A program made the position numbers and the translations under genes. Source: a virus (lineage: Duplodnaviria > Heunggongvirae > Uroviricota > Caudoviricetes). From it: 7,450 nucleotides of DNA. Positions within the stretch are counted from its first letter, which is position 1; each line of letters starts with the position of its first letter. Below the pieces are notes generated by a model. That model made no database searches. It had not been told where the DNA came from and saw only the letters and a list, made by a program, of their open reading frames with translations. The stretch lies in IMG/VR virus record IMGVR_UViG_2531839581_000012; one strand, written 5' to 3'. Positions 412 to 7,272 of this stretch are shown here, in pieces.

Positions 412-1482
412 ATGGCTAACGCTTGGCTCAGATTATGGCATGACATGCCAAATGACCCTAAGTGGCGAACAATTGCCAGGGTGTCAGGGCAGCCAATTGC
501 AACAGTGATGGCAGTGTATATCCACCTCCTGGTGAGCGCGTCACGAAATGTCACGCGAGGTCACATTGATGTCACGACAGAAGATTTGGCAAGTGCGCTC
601 GACGTGACAGAAGAGGTAATTGATTCAATTTTGCAGACGATGCAGGGGCGGGTACTTGATGGTGATTTAATCACTGGATGGGAAAAACGCCAGGTGCTTA
701 AAGAGGACAACGGCAATATTTCGCAAACCGCAAAATCTCCTGCAGAGCGCAAGAGGGCGCAGCGAGAGAGGGAAAGAAAGCGGGAACAAAATGGCAATTG
801 TCACGGCGCGTCACGAAATGTCACGCACATGTCACGACGAGTCACGACAGATAAAGATACAGATAAAGATACAGATCAAGAAGATCAAAACACTATGGTC
901 CATGGCGTAAAAAACGCCACGAACCAGGCAGGGGATGTTCAGACCGTCAATCTTGGTCAGCCAGCAGGCACGACACCGGAAGCCGATTCAGCGTATGCGC
1001 TGAAAGCCGATTCGGGCGCTGTGCAGCAGGTGATGACCGCAAGGGCGGAGCAATCACACCAACTGCAGCAGCCTGAAGCCGATTCCGCCATTCAGCGGGA
1101 AGCCGATCGGGTAGTCCCGGAAAACACCGGGCAGTCTGTGGGACGAGTGGATTATCCGGATGTGTTCGAACAGGTCTGGCGGGAGTACCCGTTGCGTGCT
1201 GGGGCAAACCCGAAGAAATCCGCTTTCAGTGCCTGGAAGGCCAGATTACGCGAGGGGGTGCCACCAGAGGCCATGCTGGATGGCGTGAGGCGTTACGCAA
1301 GATACTTGGCGGCTACCGGGAAAACGGGAACGGAATTTGTTCAGCGAGCGACGACGTTTTTTGGACCGGACCGGAATTTTGAGAACCCCTGGTTGCTCCC
1401 GGTAAGCGGCACGAACAACCAGCGTTGTGTGAATCATATTTCTGAACCGGATAACGAAATTCCGCCGGGCTTCAGGGGGTAA
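412..1482 (+). CDS. Phage replication initiator / replisome-organiser protein with iterons embedded in its own gene
   Basis: The ORF track gives 406..1482 starting at GTG; an ATG at 412 lies 5 nt after AAGAGG (401-406) and is the preferred start. The N-terminal ~120 aa (WLRLWHDMPNDPKW...AVYIHLLVSAS) resembles the winged-helix N-domain of phage replisome-organiser proteins. A basic linker follows (ERKRAQRERERKRE). The C-terminal ~110 aa (DYPDVFEQVWREYPLRAG...FVQRATTFFGPD) resembles the conserved C-terminal domain of enterobacterial prophage initiators (DnaT-like or DUF1376-type, family assignment uncertain). Two iteron clusters sit inside the gene, as with lambda O and ori-lambda. Confidence 0.7.
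   Translation: MANAWLRLWHDMPNDPKWRTIARVSGQPIATVMAVYIHLLVSASRNVTRGHIDVTTEDLASALDVTEEVIDSILQTMQGRVLDGDLITGWEKRQVLKEDNGNISQTAKSPAERKRAQRERERKREQNGNCHGASRNVTHMSRRVTTDKDTDKDTDQEDQNTMVHGVKNATNQAGDVQTVNLGQPAGTTPEADSAYALKADSGAVQQVMTARAEQSHQLQQPEADSAIQREADRVVPENTGQSVGRVDYPDVFEQVWREYPLRAGANPKKSAFSAWKARLREGVPPEAMLDGVRRYARYLAATGKTGTEFVQRATTFFGPDRNFENPWLLPVSGTNNQRCVNHISEPDNEIPPGFRG
536..608 (+). repeat. Iteron cluster 1 of the putative replication origin
   Basis: TCACG/TCACA motifs start at 541, 551, 561 and 572, spaced 10-11 bp (about one helical turn), with an inverted copy CGTGAC at 602-607. The 21-mer GCGCGTCACGAAATGTCACGC at 536-556 recurs exactly at 806-826. Confidence 0.65.
801..846 (+). repeat. 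Iteron cluster 2 of the putative replication origin
   Basis: Five TCACG copies start at 801, 811, 821, 832 and 842 with 10-11 bp periodicity. The cluster contains the exact 21-mer shared with cluster 1 (806-826). Confidence 0.7.
851..890 (+). repeat. AT-rich tandem repeat next to the iterons; candidate DNA-unwinding element
   Basis: GATAAAGATACA occurs twice in tandem (851-862, 863-874), followed by GATCAAGAAGATCAAAAC with two GATC sites (874-877, 883-886). It lies immediately 3' of iteron cluster 2 and encodes the acidic low-complexity stretch DKDTDKDTDQEDQ. Confidence 0.5.
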
Positions 1483-2172: not shown

Positions 2173-3302
2173 AAATCATTGAAGGTGCAACAAAGGCAAA
2201 TGCTTCGATGGCTAGTAATTATGCTGGGTTGCTGGCAGATAAGCTCGAACAAAAAGGGGAGGTCAAGCAAGCCAGAATGATAAGAGAAAGGTTGCTTAGA
2301 GCTCCCCAGGCGTTGGCAGGAGCTCAAAGGGCTGGAGGTGGGATATCTCTGGGCTCATTACCGGTAGATATTGATAGTCGACTCAACACTGTTGATGTCA
2401 GTTATCCTAAATTAGACAGTTCAGAGATTTTTCTGCCTGCAGCAATCAGTACCCGTGTTGAAGAGTTTATCACTAATGTTCAACGTTATGATGAGTTTGT
2501 TAAAGCTGATGCAGCATTGCCGAGTCGTATGCTCGTGTATGGAAAGCCAGGAACAGGTAAGACTATGTTATCTAAGTACATCGCTACCCGCTTAGATTTT
2601 CCACTTCTTACAGTGCGTTGCGATACTTTGATTAGTAGTTTATTGGGACAAACCAGCAAAAATCTTAGACAGGTTTTCGATTATGTAATGCAGAGGCCAT
2701 CAGTGCTTTTTTTAGACGAATTTGATGCTTTAGCTGGAGCAAGAGGTAATGAGAGAGATATAGGTGAGCTTCAGCGAGTTGTCATTTCACTATTGCAGAA
2801 TATGGATGCGGCATCAGAGGATACGGTAATTATTGCCTCAACTAACCATGAGCAACTTCTGGATCCTGCAATCTGGAGGCGATTTAGCTTCAGAATTCCA
2901 ATGCCTCTGCCTGACATACATCAGAGAGAGTTAATTTGGAAAAATCGTTTAAAGAATATGATATGTAGCGATCTAGATTTAAGTGATTTATCAAGAAAAT
3001 CGGAGGGATTATCCGGAGCAATAATTGAACAGGTGAGCTTGGATGCACGTAGGGATGCAGTTATTGAAGGTGCAAGTGTGATAAATCACCATAAATTGTA
3101 TAGGCGTTTGTATCTTGCGCAATCGCTTATGGAAGGTGTAAATTTAAGCACTTACGAAGATGAAATTCGTTGGTTACGTTCTAAAGATAAAAAATTATTT
3201 TCTATCAGAGTTCTTGCTAATTTGTACAAACTTACATCAAGAGTAATTTCAAACATTCTGAAGGAGTCAGGAGCATATGAGCAGAAGGGGTACACAGTTT
3301 AG
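2148..3302 (+). CDS. Classic-clade AAA+ ATPase (384 aa) with a C-terminal helix-turn-helix-like segment; IetA-like by architecture
   Basis: ATG at 2148 follows GGGAG (2137-2141) at 6-nt spacing and an in-frame TGA at 2145-2147. Walker A is GKPGTGKT (G132-T139, nt 2541-2564). Walker B is VLFLDEFD (D190/E191, nt 2715-2720). Sensor-1 and second region of homology read IIASTNHEQLLDPAIWRRFSF (N233, R244/R245), closely matching the canonical AAA pattern TN...LDPA...RRF. The C-terminal FSIRVLANLYKLTSRVISNILKE looks like an HTH. The stop (TAG 3300-3302) overlaps the downstream gene by 26 nt. Confidence 0.85.
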   Translation: MDYLSEVLKIIEGATKANASMASNYAGLLADKLEQKGEVKQARMIRERLLRAPQALAGAQRAGGGISLGSLPVDIDSRLNTVDVSYPKLDSSEIFLPAAISTRVEEFITNVQRYDEFVKADAALPSRMLVYGKPGTGKTMLSKYIATRLDFPLLTVRCDTLISSLLGQTSKNLRQVFDYVMQRPSVLFLDEFDALAGARGNERDIGELQRVVISLLQNMDAASEDTVIIASTNHEQLLDPAIWRRFSFRIPMPLPDIHQRELIWKNRLKNMICSDLDLSDLSRKSEGLSGAIIEQVSLDARRDAVIEGASVINHHKLYRRLYLAQSLMEGVNLSTYEDEIRWLRSKDKKLFSIRVLANLYKLTSRVISNILKESGAYEQKGYTV

Positions 3303-6229: not shown

Positions 6230-6649
6230 GTGCGGGTATTACTTCGATCTGTTCTGGTACCGGAACTCGGTCTGGTTATCGTTAAGCCAGGCCGTGAATC
6301 AATGTCAGCATTCCATAACGGCAGAATACTGGTGGAGCCGGAACCAAAAAGCATGCGTAATCTGCCGTCCGGGGTCGTTCCTGCCGCTCGCCAGCCGCTG
6401 GTGGAAGACAAAACATTGCTGCCGTTTTTCAGCAACGAACGGGTGATTCGTGCTGCTGGTGGCGCTGGCGCATTGTCTGACTGGTTACTGCGCCATGTTA
6501 AATCCTGCCAGTGGCCCAGGGATTACACACAGGAAACCGTCATCACGTTAGGTCGGCGCATGGTGTTGTGCTGGCACTGGACAACCAGTTGCGTGACCAG
6601 CCTCGAATCACTTGAGCAACTTGCTCACCAAAACTGTCAGCATGGATGA
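6230..6649 (+). CDS. Hypothetical phage nin-region protein (139 aa)
   Basis: GTG at 6230 is preceded by GGAGG (6221-6225), though the spacing is short. Its stop overlaps the downstream start in an ATGA arrangement (6646-6649), which suggests translational coupling and supports a real gene. No family was recognised. Confidence 0.45.
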   Translation: MRVLLRSVLVPELGLVIVKPGRESMSAFHNGRILVEPEPKSMRNLPSGVVPAARQPLVEDKTLLPFFSNERVIRAAGGAGALSDWLLRHVKSCQWPRDYTQETVITLGRRMVLCWHWTTSCVTSLESLEQLAHQNCQHG

Positions 6650-7272
6650 TTGACGTCATCCGTCACGCAATCAGCGGTACGCAGGAGAGGGAGTTATCGC
6701 TGGCCGAATTATCCTGGTGGGCGGTCTGCAATCAGGTGGCTGATGCGCTTCCGGAGTCTGTATCGTGTCGTTCACTGGGATTACCGGTGGAAAAAATCCG
6801 CTCCGTATACCGTGAGAGTGACATCGTACCGGGAGAACAGACTGCCACCAGCATACTGAAGCAGCGCACAAAAAATATTGCGCTGCCACTTCACGCCCAC
6901 CAGCAACAGCCCCCACTCCAGGAAAAGACGTTAGTAAGCATCGCCGTTGATCCGGAGTCTCCGGCTCAGTATCTCCAGCGCCAGAAACCACAACGGGAAG
7001 AGATGCCTGTATACACGCGCTGGGTAAAAACGCAGAAATGCATGACGTGCGGTAATCAGGCAGATGATCCGCATCACATCATTGGTCATGGCCTGGGAGG
7101 TATGGGAACAAAGGCTGATGATTTGTTTGTTATTCCGCTGTGCCGTAAATGTCATAACGAACTGCACGCCGGGGTAAAAGATTTTGAAGAAAAATACGGC
7201 AGCCAGCTGTTGTTGCTGATTCGTTTTTTAATGCACGCGAGAAATTCGGGTGTCCTGAAGTGGAAAGCATGA
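6646..7272 (+). CDS. Phage nin-region protein (208 aa) with a C-terminal Cys/His cluster; putative zinc-binding or HNH-like domain
   Basis: ATG at 6646 overlaps the upstream stop (ATGA). Its stop (TGA 7270-7272) abuts the ATG at 7273 of the rusA-like gene. The C-terminus reads CMTCGNQADDPHHIIGHGLGG...CRKCHNELH, a C-x2-C ... HH ... C-x2-C-H arrangement. It resembles conserved prophage proteins found next to rusA or Q; a DUF968-type assignment is possible but uncertain. Confidence 0.6.
   Translation: MIDVIRHAISGTQERELSLAELSWWAVCNQVADALPESVSCRSLGLPVEKIRSVYRESDIVPGEQTATSILKQRTKNIALPLHAHQQQPPLQEKTLVSIAVDPESPAQYLQRQKPQREEMPVYTRWVKTQKCMTCGNQADDPHHIIGHGLGGMGTKADDLFVIPLCRKCHNELHAGVKDFEEKYGSQLLLLIRFLMHARNSGVLKWKA

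Follow-up and report, generated by a model that had tools for sequence, protein, structure and literature searches.

Phased copies of a short word inside a protein-coding gene raise the question of whether they serve the protein or the DNA and, if the DNA, what reads them. The case studied here lies in a stretch of 7,450 nucleotides (the window) from the tailed-phage record IMGVR_UViG_2531839581_000012, in which a replication-initiator gene holds two clusters of such repeats and an AT-rich tract. A preliminary description had proposed that this gene contains an iteron-type origin. That proposal fits what we found: selection at the DNA level, a conserved layout in relatives, joint change of the word in both clusters and a location in the replication module. 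Most likely, the repeats are the site at which a common E. coli prophage starts its replication. We put at roughly three in four the probability that positions 536 to about 930 form a theta-type origin of a lambdoid (Qin-like) temperate phage, placed inside the phage's own initiator gene. Origins within initiator genes are known, and it is the two-array form that is so far undescribed. Our search of the literature found no description of the origin of this initiator family, and a paper on the Eru replication types of Stx phages makes no mention of iterons, origins, DnaT or replisome organizers.

Anatomy of the locus

Eight GTCACG sites and one degenerate site, GTCACA, lie on one strand inside the open reading frame (ORF), which accounts for the nine TCACG-type repeats in two clusters noted before (Table 1). 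Neighbouring sites are 10, 10 and 11 bp apart in array 1 and 10, 10, 11 and 10 bp apart in array 2, so that the regular spacing of the preliminary description stands, with a mean of 10.3 bp instead of its ~10.5 bp. All array sites are in direct orientation, and array 1 is 230 bp upstream of array 2. What is conserved in a site is a 6-bp asymmetric core alone, with a weak T at -1, A or C at +6 and free spacers; several sites carry the word TGTCAC. On both strands of the window together, GTCACG occurs 11 times, whereas 2.18 copies are expected (sd 1.44), and none of 200 shuffles has as many. In the complete genome of phage Tritos (46.4 kb, 97% identical), 9 of 25 GTCACG sites fall within 302 bp of the initiator gene, and no other spot has at least three sites in 60 bp. 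The exact 21-mer said to be common to both clusters, GCGCGTCACGAAATGTCACGC, was found at 536 and 806, and the window contains no longer exact repeat. Its copies are 270 nt apart, that is, 90 codons, and the peptide ASRNVT is therefore encoded twice, as had been observed.

Table 1 Features of the initiator gene and its putative origin (positions in the window)
Feature	Position	Strand	Details
Initiator gene, 'phage replisome organizer' type	412..1482	+	356 aa; contains both arrays and the tract
N-terminal helical, winged-helix-like domain	412..702	+	aa 1-97
Iteron array 1	536..577 (sites 540-576)	+	GTCACG at 540, 550, 571; GTCACA at 560; encodes aa 43-55
Single inverted GTCACG	603..608	-	codons D-V-T; tenth copy
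Iteron array 2	796..846 (sites 800-846)	+	GTCACG at 800, 810, 820, 831, 841; encodes aa 130-145
AT- and purine-rich tract, predicted DNA unwinding element	847..895	+	ACAGATAAAGAT x 2.9; GATC at 874, 883
Inverted repeat, tentative origin element	896..926	.	13-nt arms, 5-nt loop; directly after the AT tract
C-terminal tail	1408..1479	+	aa 333-356; nearly identical to the extreme C-terminus of host DnaT

The preliminary description had spoken of two phased clusters. The two-array layout was recovered, but helical phasing between the arrays was not established: the window fits periods of 10.0, 10.4 and 10.8 bp equally because of aliasing, and the inter-array gaps of relatives (219, 227, 229, 238, 247 and others) give R values of 0.5-0.67 that are confounded by relatedness, so that conservation of phasing is not demonstrable from them. 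Rfam gave no match anywhere in the window, and a promoter and terminator scan of positions 300-1600 returned counts at chance level.

Array 2 directly abuts the AT-rich tract, whose GC content is 0.29 against 0.54 for the ORF and whose purine fraction is 0.71. The repeat units within it match at 95%, and the least stable 40-mer of positions 1-2000 starts at 851, inside the tract (-43.4 kcal/mol; mean -56.2, sd 3.8). The number of 12-nt units differs among near-identical prophages. The tandem repeat with two GATC sites is thus present as first described, while a meaning of the GATC sites is only suggestive. The inverted repeat that follows has a folding energy in the top 4% of the 44-nt windows of the ORF. 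Across the family, hairpin enrichment at this place is weak (median rank 0.09 versus 0.15, p 0.013), and we do not count a conserved hairpin among the features of the locus, although one is seen in the window.

Selection at the DNA level

Selection on the repeats acts through the DNA and not through the protein. GTCACG occupies all three codon frames, and synonymous-codon shuffles of the ORF give a mean of 1.64 copies and a maximum of 6, against the 8 observed (0 of 20,000). Among relatives, the arrays persist down to 44% identity (best aligned segment) while the peptides that they encode differ. The fold of the N-terminal domain does not need the peptide NVTRGHxDVT, since the repeat-less homologues L037 and L042 encode SASQAQERGIYQIG in its place.

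The coding positions of the arrays and the tract are permissive. In an AF2 model, array 1 encodes the end of helix 3 and a loop, a place where indels occur between helices, and array 2 encodes part of a disordered linker, to which array 2 and the tract together (800-895) contribute aa 130-161. Protein and DNA constraints are partly confounded at array 1, which overlaps a segment with a conserved R-G. In E. coli, 81 near-identical ORFs (48 distinct) contain too few substitutions for a within-species test of constraint; two singleton changes break a hexamer, at 543 and 802.

Conservation and word switches in relatives

Homologues with the same layout at the same positions are found in about 30 other species of Gamma- and Betaproteobacteria, even where the ORF has 60-68% GC. 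Their hosts include Shigella, Serratia, Rahnella, Pseudomonas, Gilvimarinus, Bordetella, Acidovorax, Chromobacterium, Aquitalea and Castellaniella. We tabulated the hexamers of 37 species-level ORFs, and in 24 of them GTCACG is the commonest, alone or tied. The two arrays of relatives sit at about nt 129-160 of the ORF, as seen for array 1 in about 25 species-level relatives, and at about nt 380-430; neighbours within an array are 10 bp apart in 114 cases and 11 bp apart in 33. An array directly precedes the AT tract in all repeat-carrying relatives. Nearly all relatives have an (AGATAA)n tract directly after array 2, and no 40-mer of the ORF has a lower GC content than this tract, even in ORFs of 60-68% GC. 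The inverted copy also recurs in 13 of the 37 ORFs, at ORF nt 192 or, where the match starts from residue 5, at nt 180.

Relatives that kept the protein and lost the repeats would have spoken against the origin proposed at the outset; the initiator lineages kept the repeats. Three low-GC lineages (L027, L029 and L034) retain the AT tract, with weak words before it and no clear array 1, which shows that array 1 is not universal.

In some lineages the word itself has changed, and it has done so in both arrays: to GTAACG in L021, L025, L030 and L033 and to CGAACG in L028, L031 and L032. The inverted copy of L025, an Enterobacter lineage, reads CGTTAC. The GTAACG lineages are not each other's closest relatives in the N-terminal domain, which points to two or three independent switches. 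A comparison of word classes did not single out specificity-determining residues in this domain, because most of the residues that set the classes apart are specified by the repeat sequences.

The initiator protein

The protein matches phrog_3729, 'replication initiation protein', over its full length (E 1e-256), and NCBI sources name it 'phage replisome organizer'. At E <= 0.01, the full protein matched no Pfam family, Phage_rep_O included, and it had no Rep_3/RepA-type match. When the search was widened to E values up to 10, it returned PF09681 (Phage_rep_org_N) and a Crp HTH, and nothing else. The PF09681 match is collinear, aa 5-123 with profile positions 1-119 of 121, and scores 16.6 bits, below the cut-off of 23.3 (E 0.008).

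The N-terminal domain, presumed to bind the iterons, is modelled by AF2 with five helices and a beta hairpin at 78-88, at a pLDDT of 82-90 over most of aa 11-90. Compared with PDB folds, the model had no match with an E value below 1; winged-helix DNA binders topped the list, and we do not take these non-significant matches as evidence of family membership. The motif WLRLWHDMPNDPKWRTI is invariant among 15 aligned homologues. At the other end of the protein, aa 333-356 align to positions 156-179 of 179 of the NCBIfam DnaT profile NF002770, and the last 21-24 residues align to PDB chains 6aep, 2ru8 and 9zbt_D. This DnaT-like tail, which contains IPPGFRG, is presumably a motif for recruitment of the host primosome.

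Genomic context and modular exchange

The initiator gene follows genes for CI, Cro and a YdaT/Rha-like protein, and downstream of it in the window come a DUF977/Ren-like gene and IetA/IetS. No helicase or loader gene is next to the initiator gene in the window, and none is annotated in Tritos. The gene that follows in relatives is lambda-P-like (PF06992) in L003, L024 and L028, IstB/DnaC-like in L016 and L033 and DnaB in L030. In mosaic relatives, similarity stops at about aa 138-157, which is where array 2 and the tract lie, and in E. coli O157-type variants it stops at window positions 870-882. Judged by these boundaries, the N-terminal domain, the arrays and the tract are exchanged as one unit.

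The replication cassette has matches in 2226 of 5426 complete E. coli genomes, with at least 80% of it covered in 1649, and prophages of many other Proteobacteria carry it as well. Genome annotations call the initiator 'hypothetical' or 'DNA-binding protein', the phage records that annotate the gene name it only as a replication protein, and the Tritos record lists no origin feature.

Alternative explanations

The exact 21-mer, repeated 90 codons apart and giving ASRNVT twice, might by itself suggest a recent internal duplication or a peptide motif selected in the protein, with no function in the DNA. This is barely credible given that the hexamer uses every reading frame, that no synonymous shuffle attains the observed count and that arrays in distant relatives outlast the peptides they encode. 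Sites for a host factor are a very unlikely alternative too. OmpR/PhoB-type response regulators bind direct repeats with an 11-bp period, close to the 10-11 bp seen here, and the TGTCAC of several sites resembles the pho-box half-site CTGTCAT. However, closely related lineages differ in the word in both arrays (L024 has GTCACG and L025 GTAACG, at 76% identity in the N-terminal domain), and the same word is kept in hosts from Enterobacterales to Burkholderiales. Each of these observations favours a reader encoded by the phage.

With a phage-encoded reader, the arrays could be operators only, through which the initiator or another DNA-binding protein of the phage blocks or tunes transcription of the replication operon, the origin being elsewhere. 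Phased sites within a gene would indeed act as a roadblock to transcription, array 1 has no adjoining AT tract, and a second array has a control role in iteron plasmids such as P1 and F. We nevertheless consider a purely regulatory role improbable, as it leaves the AT tract unexplained: array 2 is always fused to this least stable AT-rich segment, even in GC-rich genomes, and is swapped with it and the N-terminal domain as one cassette, and in the complete genome of Tritos the word is clustered nowhere else. That the site is centromere-like or serves packaging is highly improbable. The layout does recall parC of plasmid R1 and tubC, in which two arrays of short phased direct repeats are bound by a small winged-helix or RHH protein, but in the window no gene for a partition NTPase (ParM, TubZ) or for its adaptor adjoins the site, the annotation of Tritos has none either, and the neighbouring genes in relatives encode helicase loaders or helicases. 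Tritos is a lambdoid phage of the integrating kind, and its terminase genes lie at the opposite end.

Proposed mechanism

For the preferred reading, a replication origin within the initiator gene, we infer from the anatomy how initiation might proceed. The winged-helix-like domain would bind GTCACG words as direct repeats, one per helical turn, and initiators bound in this way would form head-to-tail rows along a single face of the DNA, at the five sites of array 2 and the four of array 1. The complex on array 2 would then destabilise the abutting purine-rich tract (847-895), which would melt under negative supercoiling, and the C-terminal half of the initiator would recruit the replicative helicase of the host. 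The phage has no helicase or loader of its own, and its initiator ends in the copy of the DnaT tail. Array 1 may be an accessory element that loops onto array 2 to give a larger wrapped complex, or it may be a control site, acting as a roadblock to transcription of its own gene or in origin pairing.

These elements can be joined in a more specific scheme, which as a whole we regard as rather unlikely: a bipartite origin in which a filament of initiator monomers forms on hexamers, one per turn, over two looped arrays, one of them within the sequence coding for the DNA-binding domain; a single-base change of the word through both arrays would reset specificity, and the E. coli lineage would load the host helicase by mimicry of the DnaT tail. 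If this scheme were true, GTCACG, GTAACG and CGAACG would define incompatibility-like classes of prophages, and the phage origin would be plugged into the replication-restart primosome and not into a loader of the P/DnaC type.

From a practical perspective, a defined origin with its specificity word would predict which prophages can still replicate and which share initiator specificity. It would also reveal the way in which mosaic phages exchange their origin modules, and it would yield compact vector parts that combine initiator and origin. The locus is a clean natural case of overlapping codes, with a presumed DNA-binding array in three reading frames inside a region that encodes a structured protein. 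Finally, DnaT-tail mimicry is a testable way in which the host helicase could be recruited by a phage that has only one replication gene.

Comparison with known systems

In ori-lambda, four iterons of 18-19 bp with internal dyad symmetry are bound by initiator dimers; next to them comes an AT-rich tract, and after it an inverted repeat. The window shows the same succession of iterons, strand-asymmetric AT-rich tract and inverted repeat, placed, as in lambda, where the gene encodes the linker that joins an N-terminal domain for origin binding to a C-terminal one for helicase recruitment. The gene also sits after cI, cro and a cII-like gene as in lambda, and its N-terminal half is exchanged together with the origin as a module, as in lambdoid and Stx phages. 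In contrast, the window has asymmetric 6-bp cores, one per turn and in a single orientation, and where lambda has one array it has two, separated by 230 bp; the initiator gene has no P-like gene after it, and the initiator is outside the Phage_rep_O family of lambda O. The preliminary description held that the locus mirrors ori-lambda inside gene O. This is borne out for the design but not for descent, since the protein has no Phage_rep_O match and instead a sub-threshold match to PF09681.

Related origins lie inside the replisome-organizer genes of phages of Gram-positive bacteria. The oriL of phage SPP1 is within gene 38 and consists of direct repeats bound by G38P and an adjoining AT-rich unwinding element, 356 bp being sufficient in vitro (PMC5737612; PMC6316719). 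SPP1 has a second G38P site, oriR, at a distance of about 13 kb and with a separate unwinding element (PMC6316719). The window resembles oriL in its direct repeats inside an organizer gene and its adjacent AT-rich element, with binding by the organizer known for SPP1 and only probable here, and it resembles SPP1 as a whole in having two separate repeat regions, which in SPP1 are recognised by G38P. G38P serves as a functional model; the PF09681 match of the window protein is collinear but weak and below threshold. Unlike those of SPP1, the arrays of the window lie within 300 bp and share one AT tract, and the window phage encodes neither a loader nor a helicase, whereas SPP1 has G39P and G40P.

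Two separate clusters of a short direct repeat are also found in satellite phage P4, whose ori and crr are both bound by the initiator and both act in cis. However, the alpha protein of P4 is a primase-helicase, and ori and crr are kilobases apart and outside the sequence coding for the DNA-binding domain.

In the iteron plasmids P1 (incC and incA) and F (incB and incC), an origin array and a control array flank rep. The window likewise has two arrays of the same word, one adjoining the AT-rich tract of the putative origin and the other distant from it. The plasmid iterons are 17-22 bp long and are not part of the rep coding sequence, and their readers are WH1-WH2 Rep proteins of the RepA/RepE/Pi type, whereas the sites of the window are 6-bp cores inside the coding sequence, with another kind of initiator, in a phage replicon of the lytic cycle. 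By analogy, the P1 and F arrays suggest that the two arrays of the window may take part in control by pairing or titration.

Results

Two phased arrays and an AT-rich tract inside the initiator gene

The preliminary description of this window pointed to phased repeat clusters sharing an exact 21-mer and followed by an AT-rich tandem repeat with two GATC sites, and this anatomy was confirmed in every particular. Neighboring sites are spaced by 10, 10, and 11 bp in array 1 and by 10, 10, 11, and 10 bp in array 2. Counting both strands of the window, GTCACG occurs 11 times versus 2.18 expected, a number reached in none of 200 shuffles. The shared 21-mer, GCGCGTCACGAAATGTCACGC, is the longest exact repeat of the window, and the tandem repeat of ACAGATAAAGAT is continuous with the end of array 2. 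Of all 40-mers in the first 2 kb, the least stable falls within the surrounding AT tract.

Table. Coordinates of the features discussed (window positions)
Feature	Position	Details
YdaT/CII-like gene	23-340	
Initiator ORF	412-1482	356 aa
21-mer	536; 806	exact copies
GTCACG, array 1	540, 550, 571	starts, + strand
GTCACA, array 1	560	start, + strand
GTCACG, inverted	603-608	single copy
GTCACG, array 2	800, 810, 820, 831, 841	starts, + strand
ACAGATAAAGAT repeats	847-881	2.9 copies
AT tract	847-895	49 bp; GC 0.29; top-strand purine fraction 0.71
GATC	874; 883	inside AT tract
Inverted repeat	896-926	13-nt arms, 5-nt loop; directly 3' of AT tract
DnaT-like tail	1408-1479	aa 333-356
DUF977/Ren-like gene	1523-1954	
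IetA/IetS anti-phage pair	2148-5541	genes overlap by 26 nt (3277-3302)
DUF968/YdfU-like HNH gene	6230-7272	two ORFs, 6230-6649 and 6646-7272

GTCACG is used in all three codon frames (GTC-ACG, V-T; TCA-CG, S-R; GT-CAC-G, C/G-H), which rules out peptide selection as its source. When the codons of the ORF were shuffled synonymously 20000 times, keeping protein and codon usage, the word appeared 1.64 times on average and at most 6 times, versus 8 observed. The AF2 model predicts with confidence that the N-terminal 97 residues fold into a helical domain that includes a beta hairpin. Array 1 codes for aa 43-55, where helix 3 ends and a loop follows, a place of indels among homologs, and array 2 and the AT tract code for aa 130-161, part of a long disordered linker. 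The repeats are thus placed where the protein tolerates them.

The 12-nt unit of the tract differs in copy number among otherwise near-identical prophages (L102, L112, L113, L119, L121, and L122): three distinct variants have 12 additional nt, one is longer, and one is 6 nt shorter, with DKDT peptide units gained or lost in the linker. By stability, the inverted repeat next to the tract is among the top 4% of windows of the ORF, and it is terminator-like when read on the minus strand; across the family, hairpins show weak enrichment at the corresponding position. Among loci L001-L033, a GATC within 70 nt after array 2 was found in 7/10 Enterobacterales loci versus 3/20 loci from other hosts, which hints at a Dam-related role (Dam/SeqA link), although relatedness and GAT codons confound the comparison. 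These sites may merely be GAT-CTA/GAT-CCC codon pairs.

Conservation and joint switching of the arrays

Relatives of the initiator were sought in one genome per species, which gave 44 loci, most of them matching the N-terminal 100-160 residues only. In 24 of the 37 tabulated ORFs, no hexamer is more frequent than GTCACG, whose two arrays occupy nt about 129-160 and about 380-430, matching their ORF positions in the window. Hosts include Enterobacterales, Pseudomonas, Gilvimarinus, Marinobacter, Bordetella, Acidovorax, Castellaniella, Chromobacterium, and Aquitalea. Almost all copies per 6.4-kb locus fall in the two arrays, with neighbors 10 bp (n = 114) or 11 bp (n = 33) apart; the conserved part of the site is a 6-bp core, with a weak T before and A/C after, and the 4-5-bp spacers are free. 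Directly 3' of array 2, nearly all relatives carry a purine-rich AT sequence of the (A/C)(C/T)AGATAAAGATAAAGA type, and no other 40-mer of the ORF is poorer in GC than this tract, even in ORFs of 60-68% GC. Three low-GC lineages (L027, L029, and L034) keep the tract without a clear array 1, so array 1 is common, not universal.

The same highly conserved N-domain (WLRLWHDMPNDPKW...) is fused to a different, longer middle and C-terminal part in L037 (Serratia MAG) and L042 (Pantoea), with the match starting at 3001. Neither hexamer arrays nor AT tract were found in these two homologs, indicating that the N-domain is also used outside the origin cassette.

Seven loci carry an alternative word, either GTAACG (L021, L025, L030, and L033) or CGAACG (L028, L031, and L032), and in all seven the new word is present in both arrays; the inverted site of L025 likewise carries it. 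By N-domain sequence, L021 and L025 adjoin the GTCACG lineage L024 (76-77% identity), the neighbors of L030 are GTCACG lineages, and those of L033 are CGAACG lineages. As the GTAACG lineages are not mutual nearest relatives, the switch occurred repeatedly, both arrays changing together on every occasion. Such joint switching would be expected if one reader protein recognizes both arrays. The Pantoea, Erwinia, and Enterobacter subfamily (L021, L024, and L025) has an extra inverted word pair at ORF nt about 210-235, CGTGAC n5 GTCACG in L024 and CGTTAC n5 GTAACG in L025. This pair lies within the helix-turn-helix codons, and the R-H-V versus R-N-V difference between the proteins is therefore dictated by the iteron word.

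Replication context

PHROGs assigns the initiator, across its entire length, to phrog_3729 ("replication initiation protein"), and NCBI sources name it "phage replisome organizer"; it aligns collinearly, below threshold, with Pfam Phage_rep_org_N (aa 5-123). C-terminal halves are mosaic among relatives. Homology of the window protein to these relatives breaks at aa about 138-157 and, in E. coli O157-type variants, at window positions 870-882, within the AT tract; the N-domain hence moves with both arrays and with the tract as one cassette, joined to alternative halves that would recruit the helicase. Lambda O follows the same N-half/C-half logic. The gene after the initiator is lambda-P-like in L003, L024, and L028, IstB/DnaC-like in L016 and L033, and a DnaB helicase gene in L030. 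Of 5426 complete E. coli genomes, 2226 contain a match to the cassette.

The initiator ends in 22-24 residues (...VNHISEPDNEIPPGFRG) that match the very C-terminal end of host DnaT (primosomal protein I; PDB 6aep, 2ru8, and 9zbt_D) almost exactly, and IP(P/D/E)GFRG is kept in distant homologs (45% identity). Preprimosome structures from 2026 show the C-terminal domain of DnaT docked on PriA and forming a filament along lagging-strand ssDNA (PMC13377028). The annotation of the complete 46.4-kb genome of Escherichia phage Tritos, an isolated relative, lists neither a helicase nor a helicase loader. The tail may be a DnaT mimic recruiting the host primosome to the origin of a phage without its own helicase or loader.

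The window comes from a temperate phage or prophage of the lambdoid, Qin-like type, with E. coli or Shigella as host. Its positions 1-1918 share 97% identity with the early region of Tritos, where CI, Cro, and a Rha/YdaT-like gene precede the counterpart of the initiator ORF, and positions 350-1500 are 98-99% identical to the isolated phages 204576, vB_EcoS-689R5, and Evi. IetA (AAA+ ATPase) and IetS (S8 subtilase) form a complete anti-phage system; both exceed the NCBIfam equivalog cut-offs and match PADLOC models. The prophage carries the pair as cargo, flanked by its DUF977 and DUF968 genes, and the Tritos cargo at this place differs. The two HNH ORFs, overlapping at ATGA, match the N- and C-parts of phrog_96 (profile 1-142 and 145-334), whereas the Tritos counterpart is a single 948-nt gene; identity to Tritos is only 86% here, with many indels, and the split may be a frameshift or pseudogene, or a genuine two-gene form.

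Discussion

The arrays and the tract are most likely an iteron origin and the unwinding element next to it. The conserved layout of two arrays and a tract, the joint word change, and the replication-gene context support the earlier proposal of an origin embedded in the initiator gene, and we put the probability that this is the origin read by the protein encoded there at roughly three in four. A neutral duplication or peptide repeat is contradicted by the three-frame use, the excess over synonymous shuffles, and the two-array layout of relatives. A purely regulatory role would leave the invariable AT tract unexplained. The word resembles a pho-box half-site, as a host-factor site might, but such a site explains neither why closely related phage lineages switch the word in both arrays together nor why the word stays constant across distant hosts. 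As for a centromere or packaging site, the partner genes are absent from the Tritos annotation.

Everything beyond the anatomy, conservation, and joint array change we infer. At the proposed origin, N-domains of the initiator would bind array 2 and array 1 in head-to-tail order, with one domain per helical turn; the complex on array 2 would open the adjoining AT tract, and the C-terminal half would recruit the host helicase. Array 1 could plausibly join the origin complex cooperatively, by looping, or serve as a control site, acting as a roadblock to the gene's own transcription or in origin pairing. Second iteron arrays and origin pairing are known from P1 and F.

The experimentally characterized ori-lambda lies inside its initiator gene, O, and the inverted repeat beside the tract recalls the palindrome adjoining ori-lambda. 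SPP1 oriL, in gene 38, is the other experimentally characterized precedent; its G38P-bound direct repeats and AT-rich unwinding element lie within 356 bp, which are enough to support theta replication in vitro (PMC5737612; PMC6316719). An in-gene origin of repeats and AT tract is of a known kind; for the origin of this initiator's family, no description was found in the searchable literature, the coverage of which is incomplete. Array 1 is without precedent in ori-lambda or SPP1 oriL. SPP1 has a distant second site, oriR, whereas GTCACG forms no clusters other than the two arrays anywhere in the complete Tritos genome, leaving no such site. The candidate origin further differs from the characterized models in its 6-bp sites, one per helical turn, in having two arrays, separated by about 230 bp, of which one lies within the coding sequence of the DNA-binding domain, and in its discrete specificity words, which switch in both arrays together.
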